Shown here: positions 7,615 through 57,650 of the stretch, in pieces
Numbering within the stretch: the first letter of the stretch is position 1
Layout of the letters: the number at the start of each line of letters is the position of its first letter
Assembly (NCBI GenBank): GCA_030648265.1
Contig: JAUSHX010000013.1
Span: 3,030-67,029, forward strand
From: a bacterium
GTDB taxonomy: Bacteria; Patescibacteriota; Minisyncoccia; Phycocordibacterales; UBA2100
DNA length: 64,000 bases
Direction: 5' to 3'
Made by a program: the position numbers and the translations under genes
The notes under the pieces: model-generated
Databases searched by the model: none
What the model was told of the DNA's origin: nothing
What the model saw: the letters and a program-made list of their open reading frames with translations, nothing else

Positions 7615-8586
7615 ATGCAAGCAACAAAATACATTTGGTTCAACGGAAAGCTGGTTCCCTGGGCGAGCGCGAAAATTCACGTGCTTTCGCACTCTCTCCA
7701 CTACGGTACCGGCGCCTTTGAGGGCATCCGCATGTACGAGACCGAGAAGGGCTCGTCTACAGATGCCGACCATCAACCGGTCGGCCCTGCCATCTTCCAC
7801 CTGAAGCGACACATGGAGCGTCTTATATTCTCGGCGAAAAGCCTCGGGATGAAATTGCCATACACGCTGGACGAGCTCATGCAGGCGGTCGTGGAAACGG
7901 TGCGCAAAAACAAACTCAAGTCGTGCTATATCCGCCCGATTGCTTTCTTCGGTTTCGGCGAAGTGCGCGTGCTTCCCACCAACTGCCCCGTAGAGGTGGT
8001 AATCGCCGCGTGGCCGTGGGGCGCATATTTGGGCGACGAGCCCGCCCGCATCACCGTGGTAAAAACATTGCGCATCCATCCGCAGACTCTTAGAGTGAAT
8101 GCGAAAGTCTCCGGTCACTACGTGAATTCAATGCTCGCCGGCCGCGAGGCCACCGACCGCGGATTTACCGAGGCACTTCAATTGGACTATGAGGGCAACA
8201 TCGCCGAAGGGCCGGGAGAAAATTTCTTTATCGTCAAAGGCAAAACCATTTCCACGCCGAAGCTCGGTTCAATCTTGCCGGGCATTACGCGCGAATCCGT
8301 TATGACGCTCGCGCGCGACCTCGGCTACAAAGTGGTGGAGCGCACATTGACCATCAAAGATGCGCTTTCCGCCGATGAATGCTTCTTCACCGGCACCGCA
8401 GCGGAAGTGACGGCCATCGCCTCCATAGACAACAAGAAAATGAAGAAAGCGAATGGCTCGTCTACAGATGCCGATGCCTACTCCATCGGCCCAGTGACCA
8501 AACAAATCCGCGAAGAGTTCCTGAAAATCACCAGAGGAGAAAATCCGAGGTACAAAAAGTGGCTGACGTTCGTGAACGGATACTAG
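7615..8586 (+). CDS. ilvE: Branched-chain amino acid aminotransferase
   Basis: WFNGKLVPW...HSLHYGTGAFEGIRMYE and ECFFTGTAAEV. It carries two in-frame GSSTDAD mini-repeat insertions. Confidence 0.9.
   Translation: MQATKYIWFNGKLVPWASAKIHVLSHSLHYGTGAFEGIRMYETEKGSSTDADHQPVGPAIFHLKRHMERLIFSAKSLGMKLPYTLDELMQAVVETVRKNKLKSCYIRPIAFFGFGEVRVLPTNCPVEVVIAAWPWGAYLGDEPARITVVKTLRIHPQTLRVNAKVSGHYVNSMLAGREATDRGFTEALQLDYEGNIAEGPGENFFIVKGKTISTPKLGSILPGITRESVMTLARDLGYKVVERTLTIKDALSADECFFTGTAAEVTAIASIDNKKMKKANGSSTDADAYSIGPVTKQIREEFLKITRGENPRYKKWLTFVNGY
7749..7787 (+). repeat. In-frame intragenic mini-repeat (GGCTCGTCTACAGATGCCGAC-CATCAACC-GGTCGGCCC, encodes GSSTDADHQPVGP), copy 1 of 3
   Basis: Same 21-nt core as 8465-8503 and 16031-16067 with an internal 6-7 bp inverted repeat (GCCGACC/GGTCGGC). 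It is inserted between EKG and PAIF of ilvE relative to canonical IlvE. Confidence 0.7.
8465..8503 (+). repeat. In-frame intragenic mini-repeat copy 2 (encodes GSSTDADAYSIGP)
   Basis: GGCTCGTCTACAGATGCCGAT-GCCTACTCC-ATCGGCCCA. The stem is changed in a compensatory way (GCCGAT/ATCGGC). Confidence 0.65.
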
Positions 8587-8587: not shown

Positions 8588-8637
8588 GCGCAAACGGCTC
8601 AATTACCGGTAATTGAGCCGTTTGCGCTCTTTTTTTT
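8588..8637 (+). terminator. Rho-independent terminator after ilvE
   Basis: GCGCAAACGGCTCAATTACCGGTAATTGAGCCGTTTGCGC followed by TTTTTTTT. Confidence 0.8.
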
Positions 8638-8668
8638 ATTGCAGTCTTTTGCAAAACACTAGCATAGA
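8638..8668. repeat. Family-3 palindrome (degenerate copy: GCAGTCTTTTGCAAAACACTAGC)
   Basis: Related to CCAGTGTTTTGCAAAACACTGG at 11569-11604 and 28291-28327. Confidence 0.5.
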
Positions 8669-8857
8669 AAAAGCCCAGCGTCGCAATCGCCGGGCCTTTC
8701 GAAATGGAACAAAAGTACAATTGGTTTGGCGGTCTTTGCCGCATTTCTCATCTCAGCGTCTGGGTCCGAGGGGTCAACCGTTCTTCCCCATGATGGTTGC
8801 CCCGCTTTCGGCAATCATTGCCTGCGCTTCGCGGTAGACCTTCGCAAGTCCGGCGAG

Positions 8858-11560: not shown

Positions 11561-11568
11561 CCCCGTTT

Positions 11569-11604
11569 CTCTATTCCAGTGTTTTGCAAAACACTGGAAT
11601 AGAG
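11569..11604. repeat. Family-3 perfect palindrome CTCTATTCCAGTGTTTTGCAAAACACTGGAATAGAG
   Basis: 36-bp palindrome just upstream of the 10379-11560 gene start. Confidence 0.7.
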
Positions 11605-11776
11605 AAAATATGCTTATATTATGGCTTTGATGCTTTTACATACTCACTCCCTGACTAATGGCTACCGACTATTTCCTGTCCCCTGTTTCCTCTTGCCTTC
11701 TGCCTATTGCCTGTCCTTCTCCCGTATACTCCACTTGGGTTTGCTTACTCACGTTTCTTTTTTAAGGAGACTGCAA

Positions 11777-15963: not shown

Positions 15964-16374
15964 TTACCGGCCCTCGGAAAACATTTTCTGGAGAGCGTAG
16001 AGTGAGATGAGCATGCACGGCAATCTAGCCGGGCCGACCGGTCCATGGTCGGCATCTGTAGACGAGCCTATCTCTGCACTTATCAATTTTTGAATCTGCT
16101 TCGGGCCGATTGCTTTCAATTTTTTCACGGTTTTGCCGAGCATCCATTCCGTAAACATTGAACTGGAGGCGATGGACAGGGCGCATCCGGAACCGCTGAA
16201 GCGCACTTGTTCAACAATGCCCTTTTTATTTACCTTCAACTGCAAAAGGATTTTGTCGCCACACAACGGATTTTTTGCTTCCACTTTATATGTCGGGCGC
16301 TTCATCACACCAAAATTCTGCGGATTCCGGTAGTGCTCCATTATTTCCTCGCGGTATATGTCATTATTGTCCAT
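15964..16374 (-). CDS. sufU: SufU/IscU-like Fe-S scaffold protein (ORF in the track extends upstream; likely start at MDNNDIY)
   Basis: NPLCGDKILLQLKV...FSGSGCALSIASSSMFTE. It carries one in-frame GSSTDADHGPVG mini-repeat near its C-terminus. Confidence 0.8.
   Translation of the reverse strand: MDNNDIYREEIMEHYRNPQNFGVMKRPTYKVEAKNPLCGDKILLQLKVNKKGIVEQVRFSGSGCALSIASSSMFTEWMLGKTVKKLKAIGPKQIQKLISAEIGSSTDADHGPVGPARLPCMLISLYALQKMFSEGR
16031..16067 (-). repeat. In-frame intragenic mini-repeat copy 3 (encodes GSSTDADHGPVGP in sufU)
   Basis: The reverse complement reads GGCTCGTCTACAGATGCCGACCATGGACCGGTCGGCCC. Confidence 0.7.
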
Positions 16375-18272: not shown

Positions 18273-18388
18273 ATTTGTGTACCAATCAACGAATGTATTC
18301 CAATCTACAAATAACTACAAATGTTAAGCCCCGTATATTCGTAACCATTCGTAGTATTCGTATCATTTGTAGATTGGGACATACTTAT
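18273..18388 (-). repeat. Family-2 intercistronic repeat, copy 2
   Basis: CCAATCAACGAATGTATTCCAATCTACAAATAACTACAAATG...TATTCGTAACCATTCGTAGTATTCGTATCATTTGTAGATTGGGAC between sufB and sufD. Confidence 0.75.
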
Positions 18389-23374: not shown

Positions 23375-23752
23375 CTATTTTATAAGGGCCACACAGGAAA
23401 TTTCAATGAGCGCGTTCTTCGGCAATGCTGATACGCCAACTGTGGCGCGAGCTGGTTTGTGCTCGCCAAATGTTTCTGCATACACCTCATTCATGTCTTT
23501 AAAATCATTTATATCGCGCAGGTAGATGTTCACGCTCGCGACCGAATCAAAACCAACTCCCGCGGCTTGAAGAACTTCCTCAAGATTCTTAAATATCTGC
23601 TCGGTCTGCTCTTTGATTCCGCCTTTTACAAACTCCCCCGTTGCGGGGTCAGTAGGAATCTGACCCGAGCAAAAAACCAGATTTCCTGCCACAACCGCCT
23701 GCGAATACGGCCCTATTGCTTTTGGTGCCTTATCTGTGTGAATTGGCTTCAT
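23375..23752 (-). CDS. ridA: RidA/YjgF-family enamine/imine deaminase
   Basis: PKAIGPYSQAV...PARATVGVSALP..ALIEISCVA. Confidence 0.85.
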   Translation of the reverse strand: MKPIHTDKAPKAIGPYSQAVVAGNLVFCSGQIPTDPATGEFVKGGIKEQTEQIFKNLEEVLQAAGVGFDSVASVNIYLRDINDFKDMNEVYAETFGEHKPARATVGVSALPKNALIEISCVALIK

Positions 23753-23912
23753 GTTAGAGATTCTTAGCGAATGATAATGAGATTAGAAGCTCTTACACCC
23801 AGCACCTTTGTTTCATTGAGAAACGAAGGTGCTGGGTCAAGAATATGTAATTCGCTCTGCTCATAACATCTTCTAGACATTACTACAGAGGTTATGCGTT
23901 GACAATGTTTTA
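23753..23912 (-). repeat. Family-1 element, copy 2
   Basis: CATGTTAGAGATTCTTAGCGAATGATAATGAGATTAGAAGCTCTTAC-ACCCAGCACCTTTGTTTCATTGAGAAACGAAGGTGCTGGGT-CAAGAATATGTAATTCGCTCTGCTCATAAC. Fills the trpF-ridA spacer. Confidence 0.85.
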
Positions 23913-26586: not shown

Positions 26587-27364
26587 ACATCCGATGTCTA
26601 ACTTTATGAACAAGCTTGACCAACTGTTCGCGGAAAAGAAAAGTGGGCTTTTTATGGCGCACATGATTGCGGGCTATCCAACAATTGAGGATTCGGAAAA
26701 AGTAGCCGAAGCGCTGGCCAAGGGCGGAGCAGACATCATTGAATTGCAAATTCCCTTCTCCGACCCGATGGCCGACGGCCCGGCGATTTCTGTTGCAAGT
26801 GATGAAGCCATTAAGAGTGGCGCGACAGTTGCAAAATCTCTGGCACTTCTTGGAAAAGTGGCGAAGCTTGGAAAGCCGGTGGTGGTGATGACCTATATAA
26901 ATATTCCATTCAGATACGGCATTCCAAAATTTGTGAAAACACTCGCGAAAGCGGGTGCCTCCGCGCTCATCGTCCCCGATTGTCCTTTTGATACCGAAGA
27001 GGGCCGCGAACTTCTTACCGCCTGCAAAGAAAATGATGTGTACCTGATTCCCGTCGTCTCCCCCGGCGTGCCGAAGGAACGCTTGGAGCAACTCGCTAGA
27101 GACGCGTCGGGTTTCGTCTACTGCACCTCGCGCCAAGGCATCACGGGCGCCAACAGCAAATTCGCCAAAGAGCTTTTTGATTTCGTGAAAGAGCTGAAAC
27201 AAGTCTTCAAACTCCCGATAGCCGTCGGCTTCGGCGTAAAATCAAAAGAGGACGTTGCCGAGCTAGCAAAAGTAGCCGACATAGTCATCGCCGGCAGTGT
27301 GTTCATTAACACAGTTAAGAATCGTGGGGATGTCGAAAAATTGACACTCATGTTAACTCGATGA
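26564..27364 (+). CDS. trpA: Tryptophan synthase alpha chain (true start may be the internal Met near 26594)
   Basis: ELQIPFSDPMADGP, AVGFGV. Confidence 0.9.
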   Translation: MNTTAHIRHPMSNFMNKLDQLFAEKKSGLFMAHMIAGYPTIEDSEKVAEALAKGGADIIELQIPFSDPMADGPAISVASDEAIKSGATVAKSLALLGKVAKLGKPVVVMTYINIPFRYGIPKFVKTLAKAGASALIVPDCPFDTEEGRELLTACKENDVYLIPVVSPGVPKERLEQLARDASGFVYCTSRQGITGANSKFAKELFDFVKELKQVFKLPIAVGFGVKSKEDVAELAKVADIVIAGSVFINTVKNRGDVEKLTLMLTR

Positions 27365-28107
27365 AAGAGATCTCGGACGGCAAATTGAAGAGTAACACGC
27401 GGAATCAAGTCGCTCGACAATTACGACATCTCCGCTCCGTAGAAGCGATCGGTGATGCAAAAGACTCCTATGAAATGAATCGTAGCGGTTCTGAGTATAT
27501 CTCCAACTTTAATGGAGTTAAGACGTTGTTCGAGTATACAAAAAAGTTACAGAGCCAGGTTATCCTTGACCTGGGCGCTGGGACGGCTAGGGCCATACGC
27601 GAAATATCAGAGAGTAATTTGGGGAGCGGGCTCGTATTCAGTGCTACGGTCTTAAGACACAGCCCAGAAATCACTAAGTATCTTGGTATAAGCAAGGTGC
27701 ATATTTCTCCTGTGGAAACTTTAAGGGGTGTGGCGGATTCTTCTATCGGATGCGTTTTGGCAAACCTTTCTATTGCTTACAGTGTTTCACCCAATCTCGC
27801 TGTCAAAAGCATTGACAGAGTTTTAGTTCCTGGCGGAGCTTTAAAGGCCGTCTTTCCTTCGCTGACTCAGAGTATTAAACGCGCAGGTGTGCTTCAAGAC
27901 TCTAGGATATTCAAGCTTGAGCTGGAGTCTATCGGATACGATACATACGAGAATCGCGGACCTCAATTAACCGTTCTCCTAGCAGTTAAACCCGGCAAAG
28001 CGATTGAAGGAGCTGCTCAGAACTTGTATTTTGCTGATGAGCTGACGGTATTCGATCAGCTAACGGACTTCGTACGGGATAGAACTACAAACCGCGCTGG
28101 AGGTTAA
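27361..28107 (+). CDS. Class I SAM-dependent methyltransferase-like protein
   Basis: Motif [11 protein letters not shown] and the post-I VLVPGGAL region. Confidence 0.5.
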
Positions 28108-28247
28108 CCGTTCTGCGCACGGTTGCGCAAAAAGTGATCCATAATGACGAGTGAGGACATCGCATCTACTATCGGGACGGCGCGCGGGAGGACGCATGGG
28201 TCGTGGCGGCCCGAGGCTTCGAGTTTTGCTACACCCGCCTTCTTCAT
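28105..28247 (-). pseudogene. Displaced paralogous copy of the aroC 3' end (intact 47-codon frame [47 protein letters not shown])
   Basis: About 85% nucleotide identity to the aroC 3' end at 28775-28930, which encodes ...[40 protein letters not shown]. Confidence 0.65.
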
Positions 28248-28290
28248 TGGAACCATTCGCGCGAATTAGACAATGCAGAAATGCTCGTTT

Positions 28291-28327
28291 TCTTATTCCA
28301 GTCTTTTGCAAAACACTGGAATAGACA
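28291..28327. repeat. Family-3 palindrome (CCAGTCTTTTGCAAAACACTGG)
   Basis: Third copy of the TTTTGCAAAA-centred palindrome. Confidence 0.6.
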
Positions 28328-28361
28328 TGACGTCAGATATTTCTCTCGTTACTGTCTATTT

Positions 28362-28397
28362 CCTTATATGCTTATTCGCGCGAATAAGCATATAAGG
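28362..28397. promoter_or_regulatory. Perfect 36-bp palindrome CCTTATATGCTTATTCGCGCGAATAAGCATATAAGG (downstream flank of hicB-like gene)
   Basis: Identical copy at 28726-28761 on the other side of the gene. Contains TATAAG. Confidence 0.8.
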
Positions 28398-28405
28398 AAT
28401 AATGC

Positions 28406-28678
28406 TCATGTGAGAACCGGCATTTTACTAGCGCGAGCAGTGAAGCGAAGATTCCCTTCCTTAACGGCCTCCGAAATAATGCGAGCTTCAATTGCTCCTT
28501 CAATACACTCGACAATCATTTCTTTCGCGTGCGATAAATTCTTGCCCCACGAGACGGTTCCCTGCACTTTTGGCGCAGTTGCAACATATCCGCCCATATC
28601 AACTTCCGGCTCAAAAACAGCCTTAAATGAGCCGTATTTCGTTTTTACAATAGCTGTTTTTATAGAGCTCTTTTTCAT
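28406..28678 (-). CDS. HicB-like (UPF0150/DUF1902 RNase-H-fold) antitoxin-family protein; no HicA partner present
   Basis: YGSFKAVFEPEVDMGGYVATAPKVQGTVSWGKNLSHAKEMIVECIEGAIE. TATAGT lies 9 nt upstream of the ATG. Confidence 0.55.
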   Translation of the reverse strand: MKKSSIKTAIVKTKYGSFKAVFEPEVDMGGYVATAPKVQGTVSWGKNLSHAKEMIVECIEGAIEARIISEAVKEGNLRFTARASKMPVLT

Positions 28679-28725
28679 GCTTGTAACTATACAATGCCAT
28701 GTTGGATTTCGCCACTACGTTTATT

Positions 28726-28761
28726 CCTTATATGCTTATTCGCGCGAATAAGCATATAAGG
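28726..28761. promoter_or_regulatory. Perfect 36-bp palindrome, second copy (upstream flank of hicB-like gene)
   Basis: Identical to 28362-28397. Confidence 0.8.
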
Positions 28762-28773
28762 AGTTATAACATT

Positions 28774-29859
28774 TCACGAGTTTTGCGCCTTGTTGCGCAG
28801 ATAGTGATCCATGATGACCAGCGCGGACATCGCGTCCACTATCGGAATCGCTCGCGGAAGGACGCACGGGTCGTGGCGGCCGGAGGCTTCTAGCTTGGTT
28901 GCCTCGCCTCCTTTTTTCACCGTGTCTTGCTCTTTCTTGATGGTTGAAACCGGCTTGAATACAACGCGGAAGTGAATTGTTTCCCCGCTTGAAATCCCGC
29001 CAATCGTACCGCCCGCGTTGTTCGTCTTTGTGTGTATTGTGCCATCCTTATCGGTGTAGAACGGGTCATTGTGTTCGCTCCCGCGCATGCCGACGCTCCG
29101 GAAGCCGAGCCCAATATCAAATCCCTTGACCGCATTGATTGAAAGCATCGCTTTCCCAAGGTCTGCATTGAGTTTATCAAACACCGGCTCGCCCAAACCA
29201 ACCGGGACATTCCGTATGACGCCTCTCACGACCCCGCCCACAGAATCGCCCTCAGATTTCACCTTTTCAACAAGCGCAATCATTTTTTCTGCCGATTTCT
29301 GGTCTGGGCAGCGGATGATATTTGATTCCACATCTTTCGCCGTGACCGTATTAAAATCCACGTCCGCGTGTATATCGCCGACTTGGTCCACGTAGCTGAT
29401 GATTTCTATGCCCAGCTTCTCTTTAAGGTATTTCTGCGCAATCGCACCCGCGGCGACGCGCGCAAGCGTCTCTCGCGCGGAAGCGCGCCCGGACCCCCTC
29501 CAGTCGCGGGCACCGTACTTCGCCTCGTAGGTGAAATCGGCATGCGACGGGCGGTACAAATCTTTGAGAGCCAGATAATCTTCGGGTTTTGTGTCTTCAT
29601 TGAGCACCATCATGAGAACCGGCGTACCCGTGGTCTTTCCCTCAAAGTAGCCGGAAAGAATATGAATTTTGTCCGCCTCTTTTCGGGGAGTCGTTATTTT
29701 ACTTTGCCCCGGGCGCCGCCTATCAAGCGCCACTTGAATTTCCTCCTCCGTTATCTCAATCCCCGGAGGGCACCCATCAACTACAACACCAACAGCCCCG
29801 CCATGCGATTCGCCGAATGTCGTTATCCGAAAGAGTTGTCCGAATGAATTTCCCGCCAT
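28774..29859 (-). CDS. aroC: Chorismate synthase
   Basis: [34 protein letters not shown]. Confidence 0.9.
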
Positions 29860-30028
29860 GTTAGATTTTGTTAACGAATGTAATGAGTTTAGAAAATCTT
29901 ACACCCAGCACCTTTCATGCATATTCTACCACTTAATCTGCGAATACCAGCTGTTGTTTGTGATTTAAATATAGCATCTGCCTAACGTTAAAGGTGCTGG
30001 GTTATAGAAAATATAGTCGCTTTGCTCC
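29860..30028 (-). repeat. Family-1 element, copy 3 (78-nt loop)
   Basis: ...TCTTAC-ACCCAGCACC-[loop]-GGTGCTGGGT-TATAGAAAATATAGTCGCTTTGCTCCTTATTTTC. Confidence 0.85.
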
Positions 30029-31846
30029 TTATTTTCTTATAACAACCCCTCTCTCCTGCAACTTTGCCACTATCTGCTCCACCGCGTGCTCCGGGGGCGC
30101 ACTTTCAGTGTCTATCGTCTCGTCAGCGGCCGCTTCGTAGAGCCCTGCCCTCTCCGCGAGCATTTTTTCCATCTCTTCCTGCGGTGTCGTCCCGGTAGTG
30201 AGTGCCGGCCGGTGAGAATCATCCTCCTCCATTCTGCTCAAAAGTATTTGAAGCGTTGCGCGCAGAAATATACACAGGCCGTTTTTCTTGACCGTCTCAA
30301 TGTTCTCCGAACGCGTGATAATCCCGCCTCCGGTAGAAATGACGGCGCCATTCTGCTCGGACACCTCGCGAATCATGTCGGATTCCAAATCCCTGAAATG
30401 GTCCCATCCAGATTTCTCCACGATATCCTTGATGCTCATGCCCGCTTTTTTTGCAACGAGTGAATCAATATCTTCGCATCTCTTTCCGAGGCGCTTCGCG
30501 AGAAGCCGAGCGACGGTCGTCTTCCCGCTCCCGCGCATGCCAATGAGAACAATGTTCGGGTCGCGCTCTGAAGTTGTGGTTTTAATGCCGATAGAATTCA
30601 ATTTCTCCCAGAACTCAGGAAATGTTTTCGTAACAACGTCAGGATTCCTTATTTCCATTCCTTGCATCTTGGTTCCTAAAACAGCGAATGCCATGGCCAT
30701 CCGGTGGTCCCAGTAGGTGTCTATGACCGCCGGTTTTGGATATCCTCCGTAAATCGTCATCGTGTCGGGGGTAGATTCGGAACGTATGCCCATTTTCGCG
30801 AGCTCTCTCTCAAGCGCCTCAACGCGCTCGGTTTCTTTCACCCGCAAGGAGCCGACTCCGGCAATATGAGTGGTCCCCGATACGCAGGCAGAAAGCGCGG
30901 CAAGCGTTTGAACCTGGTCCGGACAATCTTGCATGTTTATATCAACCGGCTTGATTCCGCGGCCTTGAATCGTTATTTGATTGTCGCCGTACTCAACCTC
31001 GTTCCCCATGTCGGCAAGGATTTTGAGGAATCCCATGTCGGCTTGCACCGATTTCGGGTTCATGTTTTTGAGCGTGATGCGCGATTGTGTAAGTGCGGCG
31101 ATAGCAAAGAAATATGAAGCGCTAGACGCATCACCCTCAACAATGTATTCATCAAGACCGTATTTTTGCCCTGCTGGAACGGCATAGGTGGATGCATCGG
31201 GAACTTCAACCTTCACGCCGAACCGCTTCATTGAATCAATGGTCATGTCAATATACGGCTTTGAGATTTGCTCGCCGATGACCTCAATATTCACTTCGCC
31301 GACCACGGGGGCAATCATGAGAATGGCCGAGAGGAATTGGCTGCTGACGGAGCCGTTCATCGTTATGGTGCCTGGGGTGAGTTTTGAGGAAGAGACGCGC
31401 ACCGGAGGAAATCCTTCTTTTTCAAGATATTCTATTTTTGCTCCGAGCTGGCGGAGAGCATTTACAAGGTCCCCGATTGGACGCTCATTCAAACGCCCCT
31501 CTCCCTGAATCGTCTTCTCTCCGGCAACAATGGAGGCAAGCGCGAGAATAAATCTGATGGTCGTGCCGGAAAGGTGCGCGTTGAGGTCGTACGAATTGTC
31601 AGCGACTGCGCGAATGTCTCCGGCGACTTCCAAATCGCCACCCTTTGAGACGACCTTGATTCCAAGCGTCTGAAGACAATCAATCATCGCCTTTGTGTCA
31701 TCGCTCACAAGCGGATTCTTTATCCGTACCGTTTTACCGACGAGTGCCGCCATAAGGAGCGCTCTGTTGGTGTAACTCTTGGAACCCGGAACAGAAATAG
31801 TAGCGTCTATGGGTTTCTCAAGCGGAAAAATCTTCGTTGTTTTCAT
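30029..31846 (-). CDS. aroA: Bifunctional EPSP synthase (AroA) fused to C-terminal shikimate kinase (AroK)
   Basis: The N-terminal 430 aa carry EPSP synthase motifs (PGSKSYTNRALL, domain repeats). The C-terminal 170 aa carry NIVLIGMRGSGKTTVARLLAKRLG. Confidence 0.85.
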   Translation of the reverse strand: MKTTKIFPLEKPIDATISVPGSKSYTNRALLMAALVGKTVRIKNPLVSDDTKAMIDCLQTLGIKVVSKGGDLEVAGDIRAVADNSYDLNAHLSGTTIRFILALASIVAGEKTIQGEGRLNERPIGDLVNALRQLGAKIEYLEKEGFPPVRVSSSKLTPGTITMNGSVSSQFLSAILMIAPVVGEVNIEVIGEQISKPYIDMTIDSMKRFGVKVEVPDASTYAVPAGQKYGLDEYIVEGDASSASYFFAIAALTQSRITLKNMNPKSVQADMGFLKILADMGNEVEYGDNQITIQGRGIKPVDINMQDCPDQVQTLAALSACVSGTTHIAGVGSLRVKETERVEALERELAKMGIRSESTPDTMTIYGGYPKPAVIDTYWDHRMAMAFAVLGTKMQGMEIRNPDVVTKTFPEFWEKLNSIGIKTTTSERDPNIVLIGMRGSGKTTVARLLAKRLGKRCEDIDSLVAKKAGMSIKDIVEKSGWDHFRDLESDMIREVSEQNGAVISTGGGIITRSENIETVKKNGLCIFLRATLQILLSRMEEDDSHRPALTTGTTPQEEMEKMLAERAGLYEAAADETIDTESAPPEHAVEQIVAKLQERGVVIRK

Positions 31847-33496: not shown

Positions 33497-34959
33497 GTTT
33501 GCGAAGCACCGAGGACTTTTTTCATTGCCGCTGATTTGTTTTGGATTTCCACGTATTCCTTCTTCGGTACGGAATCGTACACGATGCCTCCGCTTGTTTG
33601 CGTGTATGCGTCAGTGCCTGCGATAAAAACGGAGCGCAATGCAAGCGCGAACGTGCAATCGCCGTTAAACCCGAAATGTCCGACGCCTCCTCCATAGGGC
33701 CCCCGCGCCTCCTTCTCGTTAGCATCTATTATTTTTATCGTCTCTATCTTTGGCGTACCGCACACCGTTCCCATCGGAAACTGGCTCGCAAAACCGGAAA
33801 ACATATCTTCCTCGGGGCGGATGGTTCCCACCACCTCGCTTGAGATGTGCTGGACATGGCTGAATTTCTTCACGGTCATCAAATCGCGTATCTTTACGGT
33901 CCCGAATTTTGCCACTTTTCCGATGTCATTCCTGTGCAAGTCCACAAGCATATTGTGCTCCGCGCGCTCTTTTTCATCGTTCACGAGCTCGCGGGCTAGC
34001 TCTTGGTCCTCCTTAGGGTTCGCGCCTCGGCGAATCGTTCCCGCGAGCGGGCGCGTCGTCATTTCTCCGTCACGCAAAGAGAACAGGAGCTCAGGGCTCG
34101 CGCCGATGATTTTTTTACTTTGGAATTTAAGATAGTACATAAACGGCGATGGATTGATTTCGCGCAACCGTTCGTAAATCCCGACCGTGTCGCCGGTTAT
34201 CTTATACTTCGTCTTGAACCCGACCTCGCACTGAAACGTTTTTCCTTCTCTGATTTTTTCTTTCACATCCTCAACGATTTTCGCATGTTCCGCTTCCGAA
34301 AGACCTTCGTCTATACACTCCGCACTAAACGGCGCGGCCTCAATTTCTGACGCAATAATTTCTTTTAGAACCGCGCTTCTATCCTCGTCGTAGAAGAAAT
34401 ATGTAAGTTCGCCGGTCAGTTTATCTAGAATAAGTCCGTCCGTGTAAACGCCAAAAAGGAACTGGTCAAATTTTTCGTGCACCTTCACGTTTAGCGAGGG
34501 CTCCATGAGGTTAATCGCCTCGTAACTTAAATATCCAACGAGCCCCCCGTCGTAATTTCTTCCAATGGTGCGCTGCGGCATGATATCGCGCAGTGCGTAG
34601 TACGGATTCGGAACGGAATAGCTTGTGCCGTCAACGGTTAATTTGTTTCCTCTCCCTCCGATTAAATGCGCCGGTTCAAATCCGATTATGGAATAGCGGG
34701 AGAATTTCCCTTCCTCTCCCAACGACTCAAAAATAAAGCATGTGTCAAACCGGCGTTCTATTTTCTTGAACAAATCAAAAAACACTACGCCATCCGCAAG
34801 TTTGACGTATGTTGGCTTCTGCGAGATATGTATTTTCGGTAGGCTCGCCCCGTTAGAAATAGGACGCGCGTCCATAAAAGACGAGTCTTGGTTATGTTTT
34901 TTTGTTGTCATATGTTTTGTTGATGTGTCGCGTCCGCGATTTCTAATGGGGTTTTTCAT
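33493..34959 (-). CDS. trpE: Anthranilate synthase component I
   Basis: Chorismate-binding C-terminal motifs (GGGVGHFGFNGDCTFALALRS). Confidence 0.9.
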   Translation of the reverse strand: MKNPIRNRGRDTSTKHMTTKKHNQDSSFMDARPISNGASLPKIHISQKPTYVKLADGVVFFDLFKKIERRFDTCFIFESLGEEGKFSRYSIIGFEPAHLIGGRGNKLTVDGTSYSVPNPYYALRDIMPQRTIGRNYDGGLVGYLSYEAINLMEPSLNVKVHEKFDQFLFGVYTDGLILDKLTGELTYFFYDEDRSAVLKEIIASEIEAAPFSAECIDEGLSEAEHAKIVEDVKEKIREGKTFQCEVGFKTKYKITGDTVGIYERLREINPSPFMYYLKFQSKKIIGASPELLFSLRDGEMTTRPLAGTIRRGANPKEDQELARELVNDEKERAEHNMLVDLHRNDIGKVAKFGTVKIRDLMTVKKFSHVQHISSEVVGTIRPEEDMFSGFASQFPMGTVCGTPKIETIKIIDANEKEARGPYGGGVGHFGFNGDCTFALALRSVFIAGTDAYTQTSGGIVYDSVPKKEYVEIQNKSAAMKKVLGASQT

Positions 34960-35103
34960 GTTAGGGATTCTTAGCGAGCGATAGCGAGATTAGAAGCTCT
35001 TACACCCTGTTAAATGCGATTCTTCGAGTCGCCCCGCCCTTGGCGGGATTTAACAGGGTTAAGAATATGTAATTCGCTTCGCTCATAACATTTTCTAAAC
35101 AAA
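34960..35103 (-). repeat. Family-1 element, copy 4, with alternative stem ACCCTGTTAAAT/ATTTAACAGGGT
   Basis: Conserved arms (…GAGATTAGAAGCTCTTAC / TTAAGAATATGTAATTCGCTTCGCTCATAAC), but both halves of the stem are replaced by a different complementary pair. Immediately upstream of trpE. Confidence 0.85.
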
Positions 35104-40459: not shown

Positions 40460-40495
40460 GGTACAATCCATCAACACCTGTTGATGGATTGTACC
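40460..40495. promoter_or_regulatory. Perfect 36-bp palindrome GGTACAATCCATCAACACCTGTTGATGGATTGTACC abutting the ATG of the PaaX-like paralog 1
   Basis: Identical copy at 41101-41136 immediately after the same gene. Contains TACAAT. Confidence 0.8.
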
Positions 40496-41074
40496 ATGGC
40501 AAGAACATCCAATATGAAAACGACAGTGAATCAGAATCGGCGTGAGCGAACAGTGCAAATCCTCAAAATGGTTGCTGTCGGCGCACTTATCATTGGCATC
40601 GGTGCTGTACCATCTCCGCGGGCAGTTGGTAGGCTTCTTGCTGAACTAACACTTGGAGATAGCTCGAGAAATAGAAAATATGCGAGTCGGAAAATTAGAG
40701 AATTGAAAAAGCGCGGTTTCCTTGAGAAGCACGGCGTGCGGTATGCAGTCAGCGACAAAGGCCAACGAATACTCTCTCGCGAGCGCATTATGACCCTTGA
40801 GATACCAAGCTCCCGCAGGTGGAATGGGAGGTGGTATCTCATCATGTTTGACATTCCGCTCACGCAATCGTATGCACGGCAGGCACTCAATACGCTGTTA
40901 CTCGGCATGGGTCTGGTACAGTACCAGCAGTCGGTACTTATATATCCGTACCCCATCAAAGAAACGGTGCTGCACGTCTGCAGGTTTTACAAAGTCACTC
41001 GTTACGTATCTTTCGTTACGGCGGATAATGTCGACGGCGCGGACAAACTCAAAGGTCAGTTTGGCTTACCCTGA
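40496..41074 (+). CDS. Membrane-anchored wHTH + PaaX_C/Cas2-like domain protein, paralog 1 (likely start at MARTSN)
   Basis: N-terminal TM helix (MVAVGALIIGIGAV), a wHTH segment, then RWNGRWYLIMFDIPLTQSYARQALNTLLLGMGLVQYQQSVLIYPY. It is a paralog of 49699-50286 and 58780-59346. Confidence 0.55.
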   Translation: MARTSNMKTTVNQNRRERTVQILKMVAVGALIIGIGAVPSPRAVGRLLAELTLGDSSRNRKYASRKIRELKKRGFLEKHGVRYAVSDKGQRILSRERIMTLEIPSSRRWNGRWYLIMFDIPLTQSYARQALNTLLLGMGLVQYQQSVLIYPYPIKETVLHVCRFYKVTRYVSFVTADNVDGADKLKGQFGLP

Positions 41075-41100
41075 ACTTGCGCCGAGCTCACTCATGTAGC

Positions 41101-41136
41101 GGTACAATCCATCAACACCTGTTGATGGATTGTACC
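41101..41136. promoter_or_regulatory. Second copy of the paralog-1 palindrome
   Basis: Identical 36-mer. Confidence 0.8.
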
Positions 41137-46199: not shown

Positions 46200-46385
46200 A
46201 TCTTAGATTTAATTAGTGAGCGAAGCGAGCTTAGTAAATCTTAGACCCAGCACCACTTTTGAACTCCAGCAGTTCTTGCCGATGAGTTCTGGCTGTGATT
46301 GCTTTCGGTAGTTTTGCATAATTATCATAAGTTTCAAAAGTGGTGCTGGGTAAGTAAAATATAGTCGCTTTGCTCCTTATTTTAT
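46200..46385 (-). repeat. Family-1 element, copy 5 (stem ACCCAGCACCACTTTTGAA / TTCAAAAGTGGTGCTGGGT)
   Basis: Conserved arms. The loop is related to copy 15. Confidence 0.85.
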
Positions 46386-46724
46386 TTAGAATTGAAGTCC
46401 GGCGGTGCGCGCGGCATCAGCAAACGCTTTTATCGTTCCCTGGTACTGGAACCCGCCGCGGTCAAACACGACGGCCTTGATTCCTTTTTTGCCCGCGAGG
46501 GAGGCAAGAGTACCCGCGGCCGCTTCCGCGCGCTCTTTGGGAGTCTTTCCCTTCGCGTCATCGGACGATATGGCGGCGAGAGTCACCCCCTTCGCGTCAT
46601 CAATGAGCTGGGCGATAAGGCGCGTGTTTGATTTGTATACCGAGAGGCGCGGGCGCTGTTCCGTGCCGATGACCTTGGCGCGGACGCGGCGGTGCCTGCG
46701 TATTCTGTTATCTTGTTTTGTCAT
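46386..46724 (-). CDS. rplR: 50S ribosomal protein L18
   Basis: RLSVYKSNTRLIAQLIDD. Confidence 0.9.
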   Translation of the reverse strand: MTKQDNRIRRHRRVRAKVIGTEQRPRLSVYKSNTRLIAQLIDDAKGVTLAAISSDDAKGKTPKERAEAAAGTLASLAGKKGIKAVVFDRGGFQYQGTIKAFADAARTAGLQF

Positions 46725-46836
46725 GTTAGTTTTTCTTAACGAGTGATAACGAGTTTAGAAACAACTTACACCCAGCACCTTTCGCGAAAGGTGCTGGGTA
46801 AAGAAATAGTAATTCATTTCATTCATAACGATTTCA
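46725..46836 (-). repeat. Family-1 element, copy 6 (fully palindromic core ACCCAGCACCTTTCGCGAAAGGTGCTGGGT)
   Basis: Fills the rplF-rplR spacer from the stop codon to the start codon. Confidence 0.9.
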
Positions 46837-47382
46837 TTATGCGGCTGCGCTTGTGACTTTCTTACCCGCCTTCTTGCGTACGACCTCTCCTTCATATCGG
46901 ATGCCCTTGCCCTTGTACGGCTCCGGCTTCTTGAGTGCCCGCACTGAGGCCGCAAACTGACCAACCTGCTCCCTGTCAGAACCAGAAACCGTTATGATGT
47001 TCTTCTCAACGGTAACGTGCAGACCTTCCGGAATTGCGACTTTGACGGGATGAGAAAAGCCGATTGCGAGCGAAAGTGTTTTTCCCGAAAGCTCGGCTTT
47101 GAAACCGATGCCCTCTATCTGAAGTTTCTTCACAAACGGTTTGGCTACGCCCTGAATCATGTTGCGAATGTGCGCGGCATACGTTCCCCACAGGGCGCGG
47201 GCAAGGCGGGTTTCTGCCGTGGGCACAACGGTGACCGAGCCATTCTCAATATTGATGGAAATCTGCCGGTGCAGAGCGCGCGTGAGAACGCCGTCCTTTC
47301 CTTTGACGCTGATTATTCCATCGGCCACGGAAATTTCCGTGCCCGATGGTATTGCGATTGCTCTTTTTCCGGTGCGGCTCAT
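46837..47382 (-). CDS. rplF: 50S ribosomal protein L6
   Basis: Two-domain L6 motifs. Confidence 0.9.
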   Translation of the reverse strand: MSRTGKRAIAIPSGTEISVADGIISVKGKDGVLTRALHRQISINIENGSVTVVPTAETRLARALWGTYAAHIRNMIQGVAKPFVKKLQIEGIGFKAELSGKTLSLAIGFSHPVKVAIPEGLHVTVEKNIITVSGSDREQVGQFAASVRALKKPEPYKGKGIRYEGEVVRKKAGKKVTSAAA

Positions 47383-47650
47383 GTTAGTTTTTCTTAACGA
47401 CCGAGCACTTTCTGACGATGCAGGTCTGAATAACTGTTTTAATGTTCCTTTTCGTGTTCATGTTTTTATAATCAATTAGCTTCTGAAAGTGCTCGGGGGT
47501 TTAGAAACAACTTACACCCAGCACCTTTAACGTACAGAATGCCGCGGGTTGGCGGAGTGTATTCCTTTGCGTTGTGCTTGATAAGTAAGTTCATATTGCT
47601 GGAAAAGGTGCTGGGTAAGTAAAATATAGTCGCTTCGCTCCTTATTTTAC
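47383..47650 (-). repeat. Family-1 element, copy 7, with a second hairpin (CCGAGCACTTTC...GAAAGTGCTCGG) nested in its arm
   Basis: Conserved arms. An extra 95-nt hairpin sits at about 47404-47500. Confidence 0.8.
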
Positions 47651-48046
47651 TTACCATATCTCAAACAACGCCTCGCCTCCGACATTTTCTTTGCGCGCCT
47701 CTTTGCCCGTAAGAATTCCCTTGGGAGTTGAGAGGACTAGGGTGCCGTGGCCGTACCGCACCGGCATAATTTCGCTCACGCTCCGGTACATCCTCCGTCC
47801 CGGTTTTGAGATGCGCTTTACGCCGTGGATGACGTGGATTCCGTCGCTGTCATATTTGAGAACTACGTCCAGTGTCTTGCGGACCTTTTTCCCTTTCTTG
47901 TCTATTGATGCGACAAATCCGGCATCTTTCAACTTTTCGGCGACCGCCAGCTTGAGTGAAGAAAACGGCACGGAGACCGATTCCTTTTTCACGGCCCCCG
48001 CATTCTTGAGGCGGATTATGAAATCACCAATCGTATCGTTTACCAT
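47651..48046 (-). CDS. rpsH: 30S ribosomal protein S8
   Basis: DTIGDFIIRLKNA. Confidence 0.9.
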   Translation of the reverse strand: MVNDTIGDFIIRLKNAGAVKKESVSVPFSSLKLAVAEKLKDAGFVASIDKKGKKVRKTLDVVLKYDSDGIHVIHGVKRISKPGRRMYRSVSEIMPVRYGHGTLVLSTPKGILTGKEARKENVGGEALFEIW

Positions 48047-48167
48047 GTTAGTTTTTCTTGCGAGCGTAAGCGAGTTAGAAACAACTTACACCCAGCACCT
48101 TTGTTTCATTGAGAAACGAAGGTGCTGGGTAAAGAAATAGTAATTCATTTTATTCATAACGATTTCT
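48047..48167 (-). repeat. Family-1 element, copy 8
   Basis: ACCCAGCACCTTTGTTTCATTGAGAAACGAAGGTGCTGGGT core. Confidence 0.9.
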
Positions 48168-48353
48168 TTACCAAGAGGACTTCTTAATTCCCGGAATGTT
48201 TCCTTCAAGCGCCTCCTCGCGGAAGCAAATACGGCAAAGATTGAAATCACGCAGGAAACCGCGCGGGCGCCCGCATTTGAAACAGCGCCGGATTACCCGG
48301 CTCTTGAACTTGGGCGGTCTTTGCGCCTTTACAACCATTGACCTCTTTGCCAT
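48168..48353 (-). CDS. rpsN: 30S ribosomal protein S14 type Z (61 aa, zinc-binding)
   Basis: [23 protein letters not shown]. Confidence 0.9.
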
Positions 48354-48395
48354 ATCAGATTTTGTTACGAGCGAAGCGAGTTAGAAAATCTTATA

Positions 48396-48688
48396 CCCAG
48401 CACCTTGTTTGTTTACGACAGACTGTTTTTAAGGCGATTCTTTACATAAGTGCGAGCGTTGCCATATTGCTTGAGTTGCAATTCGCGCCTTACCGCGTCT
48501 TGCTTCGCTTTATAGCTCTCGACATAGACATACTCCCATGGTCGACCGCGACTCGTTGCCGTGACTTGTCCGCTGTTGTGCGAAGCAAGACGCTCATCAA
48601 GATTCTCGGTTCTGCCAAAGTAAAGAACGCCTTTTTCAACACTGCGGATTACGTACACATGGTACATAAACAAACAAGGTGCTGGGTT
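48396..48688 (-). mobile_element. Candidate GIY-YIG mini-element: 21-bp perfect terminal inverted repeats enclosing a single nuclease ORF
   Basis: The TIRs are identical over 21 bp. The ORF start lies 10 nt inside one TIR and the stop overlaps the other. Copies 2, 8 and 17 look like internal-deletion derivatives (ACCCAGCACCTTTGTTTC...GAAACGAAGGTGCTGGGT). Confidence 0.6.
48413..48667 (-). CDS. GIY-YIG nuclease family protein (UPF0213/YhbQ-like), 84 aa
   Basis: MYHVYVIRS..GVLYFGRTENLDERLASHNSG...WEYVYVESY...A..RE.QLK. The ORF track starts 2 codons earlier at a TTG. Confidence 0.75.
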   Translation of the reverse strand: MYHVYVIRSVEKGVLYFGRTENLDERLASHNSGQVTATSRGRPWEYVYVESYKAKQDAVRRELQLKQYGNARTYVKNRLKNSLS

Positions 48689-48929
48689 ACGAAAATCATA
48701 GTCGCCTCGCTTCGCTACGGCTTCTTGATTTTCAGTAATACCCCGAAGGAGAAGCTAGAAACTCCTGCATCCTGCCTTGCGGCTGAAGATTACGGAAGCT
48801 TCTTCGCGTGACCCTGTTCTTCGTCCAACTTGTGGTTGAAAAACAAAGCCCCCAACGAGGCTCCGAAAATATACGCGAGATGCGGATGAAAGTCAAACTT
48901 CAAAAAGTCTGTTCTGAAACTAATTCGGA

Positions 48930-49529
48930 TCAAAACTTGTCTATATCGTCATTTGCTTCCCGACGCTCTTTTCTTCTTTTGAATATTTCTTCTTGAGAAA
49001 GTTTTCTACCGGGTACAAACCCCTCTCGCTTTTCCTGCTTTTGGCCTGTTTTAACTAGCATTTTCTTCCATGCGGCATCCAACGCGGGCCCAAGTTCATC
49101 AATAGGGAACCTGCGGAGAATCATCTCCCTTTCGATAGACCACGTATGCTCACCGTGCGTGGCGTAGTCAGACCCCCGTTCTCTGCGCACAGCGCTCTTT
49201 TGTTGATGAGAATCTTTTCCGAATGTGATTTTGCTGTTTATAGTACCTATGGTTTCCTCCTTTTCATTGGGATTGCGGAGGTAGTTAGTCATTCTTGATG
49301 AATAATCTACTATTTTTATCATTTCGTCATCAGAAATAGGGATTTTAAGTTCCTCTATTTCTTTTCTGAGGAAATCTTCAAAAATTGCATTGTCTACCAT
49401 TTCCTCTCCCGCGGTCTGTCCCGATTCTTTTGCTTTATCCGCCATGAGTCCTTCAAACTTCTCCGTACTCGCCTCGTGTTCTTTCTCTCGCTCGGTAGAA
49501 GCGTTTCTTTTGCCCATTTCTAGTGCCAT
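48930..49529 (-). CDS. Hypothetical hydrophilic protein (199 aa)
   Basis: ORF only; charged and low-complexity; no recognisable domain. Confidence 0.35.
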   Translation of the reverse strand: MALEMGKRNASTEREKEHEASTEKFEGLMADKAKESGQTAGEEMVDNAIFEDFLRKEIEELKIPISDDEMIKIVDYSSRMTNYLRNPNEKEETIGTINSKITFGKDSHQQKSAVRRERGSDYATHGEHTWSIEREMILRRFPIDELGPALDAAWKKMLVKTGQKQEKREGFVPGRKLSQEEIFKRRKERREANDDIDKF

Positions 49530-49657
49530 AATTTTATGCCTTATTTCCTAATTTCTTAATGCTACCCCCACCCTCCAGATACGCAAGCGGCAAAAGTGGA
49601 CATCAAAAGTCTCTCCGCCTGCTTTTTTTCTCTTCCCTTTCACCTTTCTGGGGATAA

Positions 49658-49703
49658 CCCATGTCCCTATCCAGTGGCTATAGCTATAATATAAGGACAT
49701 GGG
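49658..49703. promoter_or_regulatory. Hairpin CCCATGTCC-CTATCCAGTGGCTATAGCTATAATATAA-GGACATGGG overlapping the start of PaaX-like paralog 2
   Basis: Contains a perfect TATAAT 8 nt before the ATG. A near-identical copy lies at about 50311-50356 just after the gene. Confidence 0.75.
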
Positions 49704-50286: not shown

Positions 50287-50310
50287 TGTCGTCCTATTTC
50301 TCTCGGTTTT

Positions 50311-50356
50311 CCATATCCCTATCCAGTGGCTATAGCTATAATATAAGGACATTGGG
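50311..50356. promoter_or_regulatory. Second copy of the paralog-2 hairpin
   Basis: CCATATCCCTATCCAGTGGCTATAGCTATAATATAAGGACATTGG. Confidence 0.75.
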
Positions 50357-50413
50357 CCATGCAAGATACACCTCCAAAGAGTGCGCGGGCGACGACAGTA
50401 TCTTTCTGTTTTT

Positions 50414-50959: not shown

Positions 50960-51090
50960 GTGTTAGAGATTCTTAGTGAGTGCTAACGAGCTTAGAAGCT
51001 CTTACACCCTGTTAAATGCGACTTCGTCGCCCCGCCTTTGGCGGGATTTAACAGGGTCAAGAAATTATAATTCGCTTTGCTCATAAAAAT
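50960..51090 (-). repeat. Family-1 element, copy 10, with alternative stem ACCCTGTTAAAT/ATTTAACAGGGT (same variant as copy 4)
   Basis: Loop GCGACTTCGTCGCCCCGCCTTTGGCGGG, similar to the copy-4 loop. Confidence 0.85.
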
Positions 51091-55400: not shown

Positions 55401-55492
55401 GCTCCTTGATTTTCTACAAAATCCCGCGGCGGCGGGATTGGCACAATGTATAGGAAATTAGGCACTTAGTCAAATTTAGCCTGATATTTCCT

Positions 55493-57627: not shown

Positions 57628-57650
57628 AAATCTTTGCTTGATATGAAAAA

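Follow-up and report, generated by a model that had tools for sequence, protein, structure and literature searches.

The 64-kb window analysed here, the whole stretch from position 3,030 to position 67,029 of contig JAUSHX010000013.1 (assembly GCA_030648265.1) from an ultra-small groundwater bacterium, carries a chorismate synthase gene (aroC) whose 3' end is directly duplicated on both sides of an insert, the proximal copy completing the gene. The present insert is about 0.5 kb long and holds only a hicB antitoxin gene, a stub of the toxin gene hicA, and palindromes, among them two copies of a 36-bp palindrome referred to here as P. The reading that we favour, with a probability of roughly 0.6, is that a hicB-hicA cassette was inserted into the aroC 3' end, carrying its own version of the last ~58 codons, that hicA was later lost, and that P is a hairpin element of gene ends. 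The native tail (copy A) now lies about 670 bp downstream and still abuts its old convergent neighbour. Coordinates are those of the window, minus-strand features are read in the direction of aroC, and labels of the form L005 denote the loci or contigs of relatives that were used for comparison. The locus is composed as follows.

28774-29859, minus strand: functional aroC (chorismate synthase, 361 aa), a full-length match to the Pfam profile PF01264 Chorismate_synt (E 2e-139)
28780-28913, minus strand: tail copy B, the aroC 3' end that now completes the gene, aligning to 28110-28244
12 nt: spacer from the aroC stop to P copy 1
28726-28761: P copy 1, a perfect 36-bp palindrome found by exact match, with an RNA hairpin of -25 kcal/mol
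28679-28725, minus strand: hicB leader, 47 nt, remodelled, from direct comparison with L005, L058, L085 and L094
28406-28678, minus strand: hicB, 90 aa, from a HicB profile and from model and structure matches
28398-28409, minus strand: hicA stub ATGAGCATTATT, the first four codons, its start overlapping the hicB stop and its end joining P
28362-28397: P copy 2, downstream of hicB, 8 nt past the hicB stop
36 nt: spacer from P copy 2 to the 'family-3' palindrome
28294-28325: 'family-3' palindrome TATTCCAGTCTTTTGCAAAACACTGGAATAGA, with related copies in the window at 8630-8672 and 11566-11608
28249-28274: hybrid palindromic site GGAACCA-TTCGCGCGAA-TTAGACAAT, an R arm and a Q arm around a 10-bp core common to P
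28104-28256, minus strand: tail copy A, the displaced aroC 3' end, a 50-codon in-frame open reading frame (ORF) with a Chorismate_synt profile match
27361-28107, plus strand: convergent S-adenosylmethionine (SAM)-dependent methyltransferase gene (Pfam Methyltransf_11)

The homologous parts of the two aroC ends (28110-28244 and 28780-28913) are 82% identical over 117 gap-free nt and 80% identical over 40 aligned codons. Copy A by itself matches the last 39 positions of the Chorismate_synt profile (E 8.8e-10). At TTAA its stop codon overlaps that of the convergent methyltransferase gene. The incoming copy B spans the last ~45-58 aroC codons. A second copy of the aroC end with an intact frame had been described in the first-pass annotation of this DNA; the copy and its frame are real, but the identity is 80-82% and not ~85%, and the ORF comprises 50 codons at 28104-28256.

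Tails were compared by Nei-Gojobori counts over 40 codons. The remnant and the functional tail of the window differ by 16 synonymous and 8 non-synonymous changes, with a synonymous divergence (dS) of 1.0 and a ratio of non-synonymous to synonymous divergence (dN/dS) of 0.09, so that this ratio, when checked between the two copies, was not neutral. Between the remnants of the window and of L005, dS was 1.3 and dN/dS 0.04, and only 1 non-synonymous change, along with 18 synonymous ones, separates the window remnant from the functional tail of L001. In an idle copy left by in-place duplication, roughly three non-synonymous changes are expected for each synonymous change. Overall, the dN/dS of the displaced copy is 0.01-0.09. 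Judging from these substitutions, the remnant is the native tail at host-level divergence, and not a decaying duplicate.

Empty and filled versions of the site were found among relatives. The closest relatives of the window aroC (80-86% protein identity) come from Candidatus Kaiserbacteria and related Patescibacteria in groundwater assemblies. In most of them aroC is followed, 0.2-1.5 kb on, by a convergent trpA and hicB is absent, and the interval contains a different small gene in almost every genome: two kinds of methyltransferase (L097 has another one at the position of the window's), an HNH gene (L058), a HEPN-like gene (L085) and, in L005, c24, our label for a 152-aa gene of unknown function. 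The earlier proposal to compare the region downstream of aroC in relatives proved productive, as empty-site alleles exist in L001 and L097, where aroC runs directly into a c24-like gene. The filled site of L005 reads aroC-hicB-P-Q-remnant, Q being a palindrome that shares its core with P, and continues into the c24 gene with the same junction as in L001/L097. Because the distal copy in L005 joins c24 just as the aroC of the cassette-free L097 and L001 does, the distal copy is the original end in place.

The structure of the filled sites varies in detail. In L058 the aroC stop is followed by 19 nt, hicB, hicA and P, and in L085 by the same series with 146 nt as the first interval. At the aroC locus, the relatives examined have a counterpart of P copy 2 after the hicBA cassette, and the 'family-3' palindrome lies between P and the remnant also in L094, L137, L085, L097 and L136. 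P is missing at the position of copy 1 in L005, L058, L085, L137, L094 and L136, in which the distance from the aroC stop (in L094 and L136, from a 19-mer stub) to hicB is 17-19 nt or is occupied by a different 125-bp insertion. Since the relatives have a single P at the locus, the P behind the aroC stop is specific to the window genome. The insertion of ~125 bp, which has 13-bp inverted ends (CCCCGTTAGAAGT / ACTTCTAACGGGG) and was seen in L085 (1187-1316) and L137 (1339-1468), is located between the aroC stop and the hicB promoter, at the spot of the window's extra P. The 19-mer runs from the final codons of aroC through the stop into the hicB promoter region and is found upstream of hicB in L094 and L098/L136, with other sequence in place of aroC before it; tail copy B thus travels with hicB. 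The duplicated stretch is 58, 47 or 22 codons long, depending on the genome, and some remnants are decaying: that of L094 is missing its stop and has conserved residues altered (P to S, D to G and others), in L058 and L136 only 20-22 codons are left, and L085 has no remnant.

Divergence along the locus is uneven. Between the window and L005, dS is 1.93 for aroC, 1.40 for aroAK, 1.84 for trpA and 1.27 for trpB, and 0.55 for hicB; against L094 and L085, the dS of hicB is 0.48-0.54. When the window and L137 were compared in steps of 60 nt, hicB was 87-98% identical and the body of aroC 58-88%. Within the aroC genes of the window and L005, the proportion of synonymous differences (pS) is 0.51 in the last 58 codons versus 0.73 in the gene body. 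Furthermore, L137 is a mosaic, identical to L085 from aroC to the middle of hicB and window-like from there on, which indicates homologous exchange inside the cassette. From the low dS of hicB, the closer tail and the L137 mosaic, it was concluded that hicB and its attached tail spread after the lineages had diverged. The idea that a replacement aroC 3' end came with the insert is thus supported by the empty and filled alleles, by remnant differences that are nearly all synonymous, and by the low divergence of hicB and the tail.

The identity of the inserted gene was approached through profiles and structure. Pfam gave only sub-threshold matches for the window HicB (UPF0150, E 1.7e-3; HicB_lk_antitox, E 5.3e-3), while a profile built from 27 homologues had as its best Protein Data Bank (PDB) matches the HicB structures 6g1c (E 1.4e-3) and 6g1n (E 3.2e-3). 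The AlphaFold model, with a predicted local distance difference test score (pLDDT) of 88, shows four strands, then a long helix (residues 48-73) and a low-confidence tail. All of the top 10 Foldseek matches to it were HicB or TTHA0281, at E-values of only about 0.1; the best, 6u0i, had a probability of 1.00 and a root-mean-square deviation of 1.0 over 52 columns. Seventy homologues were found, several of them named HicB by their sources. The N-terminal HicB/UPF0150 fold, a partial RNase-H-like beta sheet plus helix, is present in the window protein, and neither the model nor Pfam revealed a C-terminal DNA-binding domain, ribbon-helix-helix (RHH) or helix-turn-helix (HTH), in its 90 aa. The gene at 28406-28678 is accordingly predicted to be that of a HicB antitoxin consisting of the N-terminal domain and one long helix. 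Among orthologues its dN/dS is 0.07-0.15, a range consistent with an orphan gene that is still under purifying selection.

In L058, L085, L136, L142 and L146, hicA overlaps hicB by ATGA (4 nt); the L058 product matches PF07927 HicA_toxin (E 1.3e-16), and an intact hicA (ATGAGCATCATTCCC...) is present in L058, L085 and L136. In the window, L005/L128, L094 and L137, the sequence CATGAGC(A/T)TTATT, made up of the hicB stop and the first four hicA codons, is fused straight to P, and hicA has therefore been deleted from codon 5 to the edge of P. As only a 12-nt stub of hicA is kept, the window hicB is an orphan member of its family, and the orphan HicB may protect against incoming hicA copies. The hicB leader has been altered as well: the old start, ATGGCA, is out of frame, and a TATAGT box and a new ATG are provided by 20 nt inserted after it.

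These results agree in large part with the first-pass annotation. The HicB-like gene that it placed between two identical 36-bp palindromes is borne out by the homologue profile and by the AlphaFold and Foldseek matches; the palindromes are exact copies at the positions noted; the 'family-3' palindrome was found between the aroC copies at 28294-28325; the partner hicA is indeed lacking, apart from its first 12 nt at 28398-28409; and the insert, described as small and without an integrase, consists of hicB, the hicA stub and palindromes only, the versions in relatives likewise lacking a recombinase. Its suggestion of a decayed island is unlikely, because the most complete versions of the cassette (L058, L085) contain hicB and hicA alone, about 0.9 kb, and only hicA has decayed here. 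As for a phage or plasmid origin, blastn found no match of 28100-28935 in phage or plasmid collections, and IMG/VR contained no HicB relative and no P core. A search of an assembly index returned no exact protein match to the window HicB or AroC.

The 36-mer CCTTATATGCTTATTCGCGCGAATAAGCATATAAGG is present in exactly two copies in the window (28362-28397 and 28726-28761), with 0 expected in 100 shuffles, and the inverted match between the two is perfect over 42 nt when their inner flanks are included. The stem is AT-rich yet stable (-25 kcal/mol). Metagenome contigs were scanned with the central 24 nt of P as the query, which recovered 70 exact copies in 56 contigs, all from Rifle and Hainich groundwater and similar samples, as well as further copies with 1-3 changes. 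Other copies of the 36-mer, which the first-pass annotation had recommended looking for, are thus numerous among metagenome contigs as far as the 24-nt core is concerned, with only the two in the window. Copy number is low: the 64-kb window has 2, a contig of 481 kb a single stretch and one of 165 kb two copies. Genomes with housekeeping genes that differ at a dS above 1 have the full 36-mer in identical form. The inner ~30 nt are invariant and the next 4-9 positions vary, though roughly half of the copies stay complementary there; the last base pair of the 24-nt query core shows paired double changes, from ATG..CAT to GTG..CAC or TTG..CAA. Mismatched outer arms were seen in about a quarter of the sites.

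P is most often found at the ends of genes. At 69 distinct sites for which both neighbours were called, it lies between convergent genes in 26 cases, tandem genes in 36 and divergent genes in 7, usually 5-70 nt past a stop codon. Both window copies fit this rule: the distance is 12 nt from the aroC stop for one and 8 nt from the hicB stop for the other. Most plausibly, P would be a gene-end hairpin element of groundwater Kaiserbacteria that serves as a terminator or insulator. The proposal that the 36-mers are the borders or attachment (att) sites of the insert is not supported, as relatives with the same cassette have one P, located downstream, and the hicBA cassette at comEC (described below) has none. 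No terminator-like site was detected in 27900-29100, nor does a T-run follow P (AATAA or AAATAG follows), and a scan for consensus promoters around the palindromes, including the hicB leader, found none. With Rfam 15, the only matches were chance hairpin matches to microRNA models (27.5 bits versus a gathering score of 95). A role of P as chromosomal dif site or terminus was rejected, since GC skew is negative across 8-60 kb without a switch at 28.5 kb. Likewise rejected was the idea that the upstream P was copied along with the spacer that follows the downstream P, for which alignment scores were no better than those of shuffled sequence.

A second 36-bp palindrome, GGTACAATCCATCAACACCTGTTGATGGATTGTACC, is present in the window in two identical copies (40460-40495 and 41101-41136; RNA hairpin of -31 kcal/mol). 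These bracket a PaaX-like regulator gene on the plus strand (40496-41074), whose ATG abuts the left copy, in a layout like that at hicB.

P shares its 10-bp core TTCGCGCGAA with palindromes whose arms vary, Q (L005, L094), R (L107) and S (L091, L112), and hybrid sites with arms of two families at the core were found in the window (28249-28274), L097, L084, L122 and L098/L136. A full Q is present in L005 and L094, a full R in L107, and the hybrid of the window also in L097. Within this hybrid, the P core ATTCGCGCGAAT at 28255-28266 is the third core site of the locus and coincides exactly with the 5' boundary of the displaced aroC tail; a description of it as a truncated Q was discarded, because the full R in L107 and the same junction in L097 show a Q/R hybrid. 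Breakpoints coincide with such sites. The hicA deletion ends exactly at P; the 98% identity of L100 and L103 stops at P, with no relationship on the other side; the single P of L058 corresponds in L136 to P, then a 184-aa gene and the 'family-3' palindrome, and finally a half-P; and the aroC and trpA remnants begin 0-14 nt from P or Q. Such breakpoints and hybrids fit recombination at the core like that at pdif sites (discussed below), and they fit breakage with microhomology joining at hairpins too.

One gene is particularly associated with these palindromes. A gene for an ArsR-like protein of 88 aa has P-type sites on every side covered by its contig in 12/12 loci (L084, L086, L093, L095, L115, L117, L119, L122, L123, L124, L131 and L133), which represent at least four genomic contexts. 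The distance between site and gene is about 12-110 nt on each side (274 nt in L123), the downstream site in L084 being a hybrid core site. The 64-kb window lacks this gene. A palindrome of another kind, ATAATGTTCGTATATACGAACATTAT, was seen in L100 (3340-3395), L103 and L109, where it separates P from the start of a gene for a DtxR/MntR-like regulator with an NRAMP transporter gene beside it; this palindrome is probably the operator of that regulator.

On the favoured reading, donor DNA from a related strain, bearing aroC tail, hicBA and palindromes, would have recombined with the resident aroC through their shared coding sequence. Tail B would thereby have been joined to the resident gene, leaving aroC intact, and the native tail A pushed downstream. 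The event may have been a single crossover of a circularised fragment, or homology-facilitated illegitimate recombination with one homologous end and one illegitimate end inside the tail region; either route would yield a duplication of the aroC end, and a stable palindrome (Q or P) would define where the incoming piece stops on its outer side. Later spread among related lineages could have occurred by homologous recombination in aroC on one side and in the displaced tail on the other, and the presence of these two homologous arms in any relative, regardless of what follows its aroC, would account for the shared junction, the host-level divergence of the remnants and the young hicB. Later in the lineage, hicA was deleted from codon 5 to the edge of P and the hicB leader was rebuilt, and in the window genome only, a second P was gained 12 nt behind the aroC stop. 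A homology-driven route is the most likely one. Mobilisation of the cassette in trans, which the first-pass annotation had offered as an alternative to decay, is possible, but homology-driven recombination explains the data at least as well.

Some findings weigh against this account or leave room for others. The tail statistics rest on just 40-58 codons. The occurrence of P-type sites at many breakpoints, and of hybrid sites, is not what a plain hairpin would predict, and P has no T-run, nor was a canonical terminator detected. The junction between Q and the remnant that is common to L005 and L094 fits an ancient event followed by spread and a site-specific mechanism equally, and the intact remnants of the window and L005 could mean ongoing selection, for example through reversible loss of the cassette. 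Because no recombinase, circular form or junction read was seen, the route can only be inferred. No integrase or transposase was obvious by eye in the first 70 residues of 75 window ORFs or among the ORFs of P loci, few of which were scanned against Pfam; as only a handful of ORFs were profile-scanned, the absence of a recombinase is not established.

The breakpoints lend themselves to a different explanation, which we consider unlikely: that P-type palindromes are recombination sites, cut and rejoined at the core by an enzyme acting in trans, so that P-hicB-P is a mobile module and the aroC tail duplication a by-product of core shuffling, as with pdif or IntI modules. P, Q, R and S might then conceivably be the sites of an undescribed cassette-shuffling system of Kaiserbacteria (Patescibacteria), with strand exchange at the hairpin centre. 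Its modules would tentatively include hicB(A), the ArsR-like regulator and unknown single genes, leaving hybrid-arm sites behind, and it is a minority possibility that the palindromes set the borders of the gene-end duplications of aroC and trpA. Such a system would accommodate the single small genes flanked by P in several contigs, the bracketing of the ArsR-like gene in all 12 loci, the hybrids that join arms of two families at the core, the filled/empty pair L136 versus L058, the end of 98% identity between L100 and L103 and of the hicA deletion at P, and the mismatched outer arms of about a quarter of the sites; dif sites are likewise conserved inside and variable outside, and pdif modules include toxin-antitoxin pairs (PMC6449649). 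It is hard to reconcile with the one P at the locus in relatives and its absence from the hicBA cassette at comEC, and no recombinase was noticed by eye, without a systematic scan, in the window or in the ORF lists of P loci. Moreover, P is conserved in its centre and varies in its arms, whereas Xer, Cre and Flp sites show the opposite pattern; being a perfect palindrome, it has no directionality; its sites show a strong preference for gene 3' ends; and no enzyme would be needed if the shared 10-12-bp core acted as microhomology in illegitimate joining or in template switching. An operator function was also considered, in which P is bound by the ArsR-like regulator and the orphan hicB between two P copies is under its control. 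In support, a P-type site lies 24-108 nt upstream of the ArsR-like gene in 12/12 loci where the flank is covered, a downstream one is also found except in L084 with its hybrid core site, in the two largest contigs (481 and 165 kb) P was found next to this gene and nowhere else, and the PaaX-like gene of the window is bracketed by identical palindromes too (40460-41136). We nevertheless regard this as improbable: 26 of the 69 P sites lie between convergent genes, with nothing to regulate, the window lacks an ArsR-like regulator gene, and both arms change together at the outermost core pair and beyond, which points to base pairing or arm-to-arm copying rather than to two independent half-sites.

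The displaced tail invites two further explanations. Selection might maintain tail A because the cassette is often lost and regained, aroC being restored with tail A at each loss. The intact frame in the window and L005 and the dN/dS of 0.04 between their remnants would be as expected, as would the coexistence of empty and filled alleles among close relatives, and excision of e14 in E. coli recombines icd with icdC into a functional gene (PMC13626634). However, the L094 remnant is decaying, with its stop lost and conserved residues changed, L058 and L136 retain 20-22 codons and L085 none, and a low dN/dS is explained equally well if the remnants were working tails until recently, leaving this explanation with a slim chance. 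The other supposes that the aroC 3' end was duplicated in place, as a tandem or target-site duplication, and that hicB was inserted between the copies without any foreign tail. Although the copies are direct repeats flanking the insert, neutral evolution of the idle copy would be expected, and the 16 synonymous versus 8 non-synonymous changes (dN/dS 0.09) speak otherwise; the remnant protein is nearly identical to functional tails of other genomes, hicB and copy B carry a horizontal signal, and the extent of the duplication differs (58, 47 and 22 codons). In-place duplication is thus very improbable in general, and in the form of duplication followed by decay it is rejected on dN/dS.

Comparable scars are known elsewhere. 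The insertion of e14 at icd was reportedly described by Hill, Gray and Brody in 1989. The e14 element is a cryptic prophage of E. coli flanked by icd and the icdC pseudogene (PMC13626634). As at aroC, the target is a housekeeping enzyme gene, entered in its 3' end and completed by a working end that the element brings; the native end has been displaced beyond the insert, where it persists as an in-frame C-terminal pseudogene, and the two ends differ mainly by conservative changes. In contrast to e14, which is 15 kb long, has its own integrase and is excised upon SOS induction (PMC13626634), the aroC insert measures ~0.5 kb, or ~0.9 kb in its complete form, and has no recombinase, only a toxin-antitoxin pair and palindromes. 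It represents a known type of integration scar in a very small form without a recombinase, in an uncultured phylum. As a toxin-antitoxin system it resembles the structurally characterised HicAB of Burkholderia pseudomallei (6g26) and E. coli (6hpb) in the N-terminal fold of HicB, with the hicB-hicA ATGA overlap and PF07927 in relatives; it differs in that the toxin gene is gone from the window and that the 90-aa HicB lacks the C-terminal DNA-binding domain of the structures, which have 132-145 aa.

Other parallels concern the palindromes and the route of entry. The pdif (XerC/XerD) modules of Acinetobacter plasmids (PMC6449649) are similarly small, include toxin-antitoxin pairs, and are bracketed by palindromic sites with conserved inner and variable outer parts, the same module occurring in different contexts (PMC6449649). 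P can be read as an Xer-type 11-6-11 site (ATATGCTTATT-CGCGCG-AATAAGCATAT) and brackets genes at several loci; unlike pdif sites, it is a perfect 36-bp palindrome that is chromosomal, low in copy number, conserved at its very centre and not located at a GC-skew switch. We know of no similarity of P to known dif consensus sequences. With the repetitive extragenic palindromes and bacterial interspersed mosaic elements (REP/BIME) of Proteobacteria, P has in common that 30-40-nt hairpin palindromes are located at gene 3' ends, between convergent or tandem genes, and are shared between related genomes, whereas its very low copy number, the missing GTAG head and the lack of any RAYT transposase seen set it apart. 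The cassettes of integrons with their attC sites, for example in the Vibrio superintegron, are also short single-gene units, often toxin-antitoxin, between repeated palindromes, but P is a perfect palindrome without R''/R' core sites (GTTRRRY) or extrahelical bases, and relatives have a single P. Neither intI nor attI was seen in the window, whose ORFs were judged by eye from their first 70 residues without a profile scan. Finally, homology-facilitated illegitimate recombination during natural transformation is described for Acinetobacter and Streptococcus and, by analogy, may operate in these organisms. It too relies on one homologous anchor, here aroC, while the other end joins non-homologously; at aroC, however, the illegitimate end is inside the anchor gene, which leads to a duplication and not a deletion, and it coincides with a palindrome.

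Similar scars are present at other gene ends. HicB homologues that are 69-79% identical to the window protein sit upstream of comEC in a conserved recJ-rnhA-...-comEC neighbourhood, where hicBA, like other small genes there, has in front of it its own diverged copy of the comEC start (~15 nt of upstream sequence and the first ~23 codons). There is one such extra comEC start in L138, one in L142 and four in L146, all in direct orientation. The array is an accretion at a gene 5' end and has no P palindromes. The comEC-start copies are located as follows.

L146, 3-70, 879-945, 1552-1625, 1759-1835 and 2479: comEC-start copies
L138, 4874-4942: comEC-start copy
L142, 3896-3976: comEC-start copy

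In L097, a 3' fragment of trpA abuts P, and a methyltransferase gene lies between the fragment and the intact trpA. In L136, a block of aroB, aroG (for DAHP (3-deoxy-D-arabino-heptulosonate 7-phosphate) synthase), aroE and aroQ on the opposite strand (1624-5312) separates aroC from the decayed aroC-tail stub that precedes hicBA, with a third short aroC remnant further on, as if this shikimate block had entered at the aroC end like the cassette. From the remnants at comEC, trpA and in L136, it follows that small blocks without a recombinase repeatedly enter gene ends and leave remnants behind.

Patescibacteria have genomes of about 1 Mb with few recognisable mobile elements, and to our knowledge the ways in which they gain accessory genes are poorly understood. 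The loci described here suggest a repeatable route of gain, in which tiny recombinase-free cassettes enter conserved gene ends, bring a replacement end and stack remnants (aroC, comEC, trpA). If the palindromes at the junctions are true recombination sites, they would represent a new cassette system in an uncultured phylum. If they are not, the locus would still clearly exemplify how an orphan antitoxin spreads horizontally and how a family of palindromes marks gene ends prone to rearrangement.

The window contains several other repeats. At least 12 copies of an intergenic family are recognisable by a hairpin, ACCCAGCACCTTT...AAAGGTGCTGGGT, and by conserved flanks (CATGTTAG... and ...ATAGTCGC); they occur at 4040-4154, 23747-23874, 29854-30035 and 34954-35098, with many in 46200-58480, and lie mostly between ribosomal-protein genes, one being between aroAK and aroC. 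A repeat of ~110 nt with CCAATCTACAAAT motifs and internal inverted symmetry is present in four copies (571-669, 18277-18386, 52393-52502 and 52700-52809). A 47-nt inverted repeat, 89% complementary, has its arms 8 kb apart (7744-7790 and 16028-16074). Runs with a period of 9 nt at 60974-61230 and 63587-63770 correspond to collagen-like Gly-X-Y repeats in the minus-strand genes 60847-61488 and 63367-63876.

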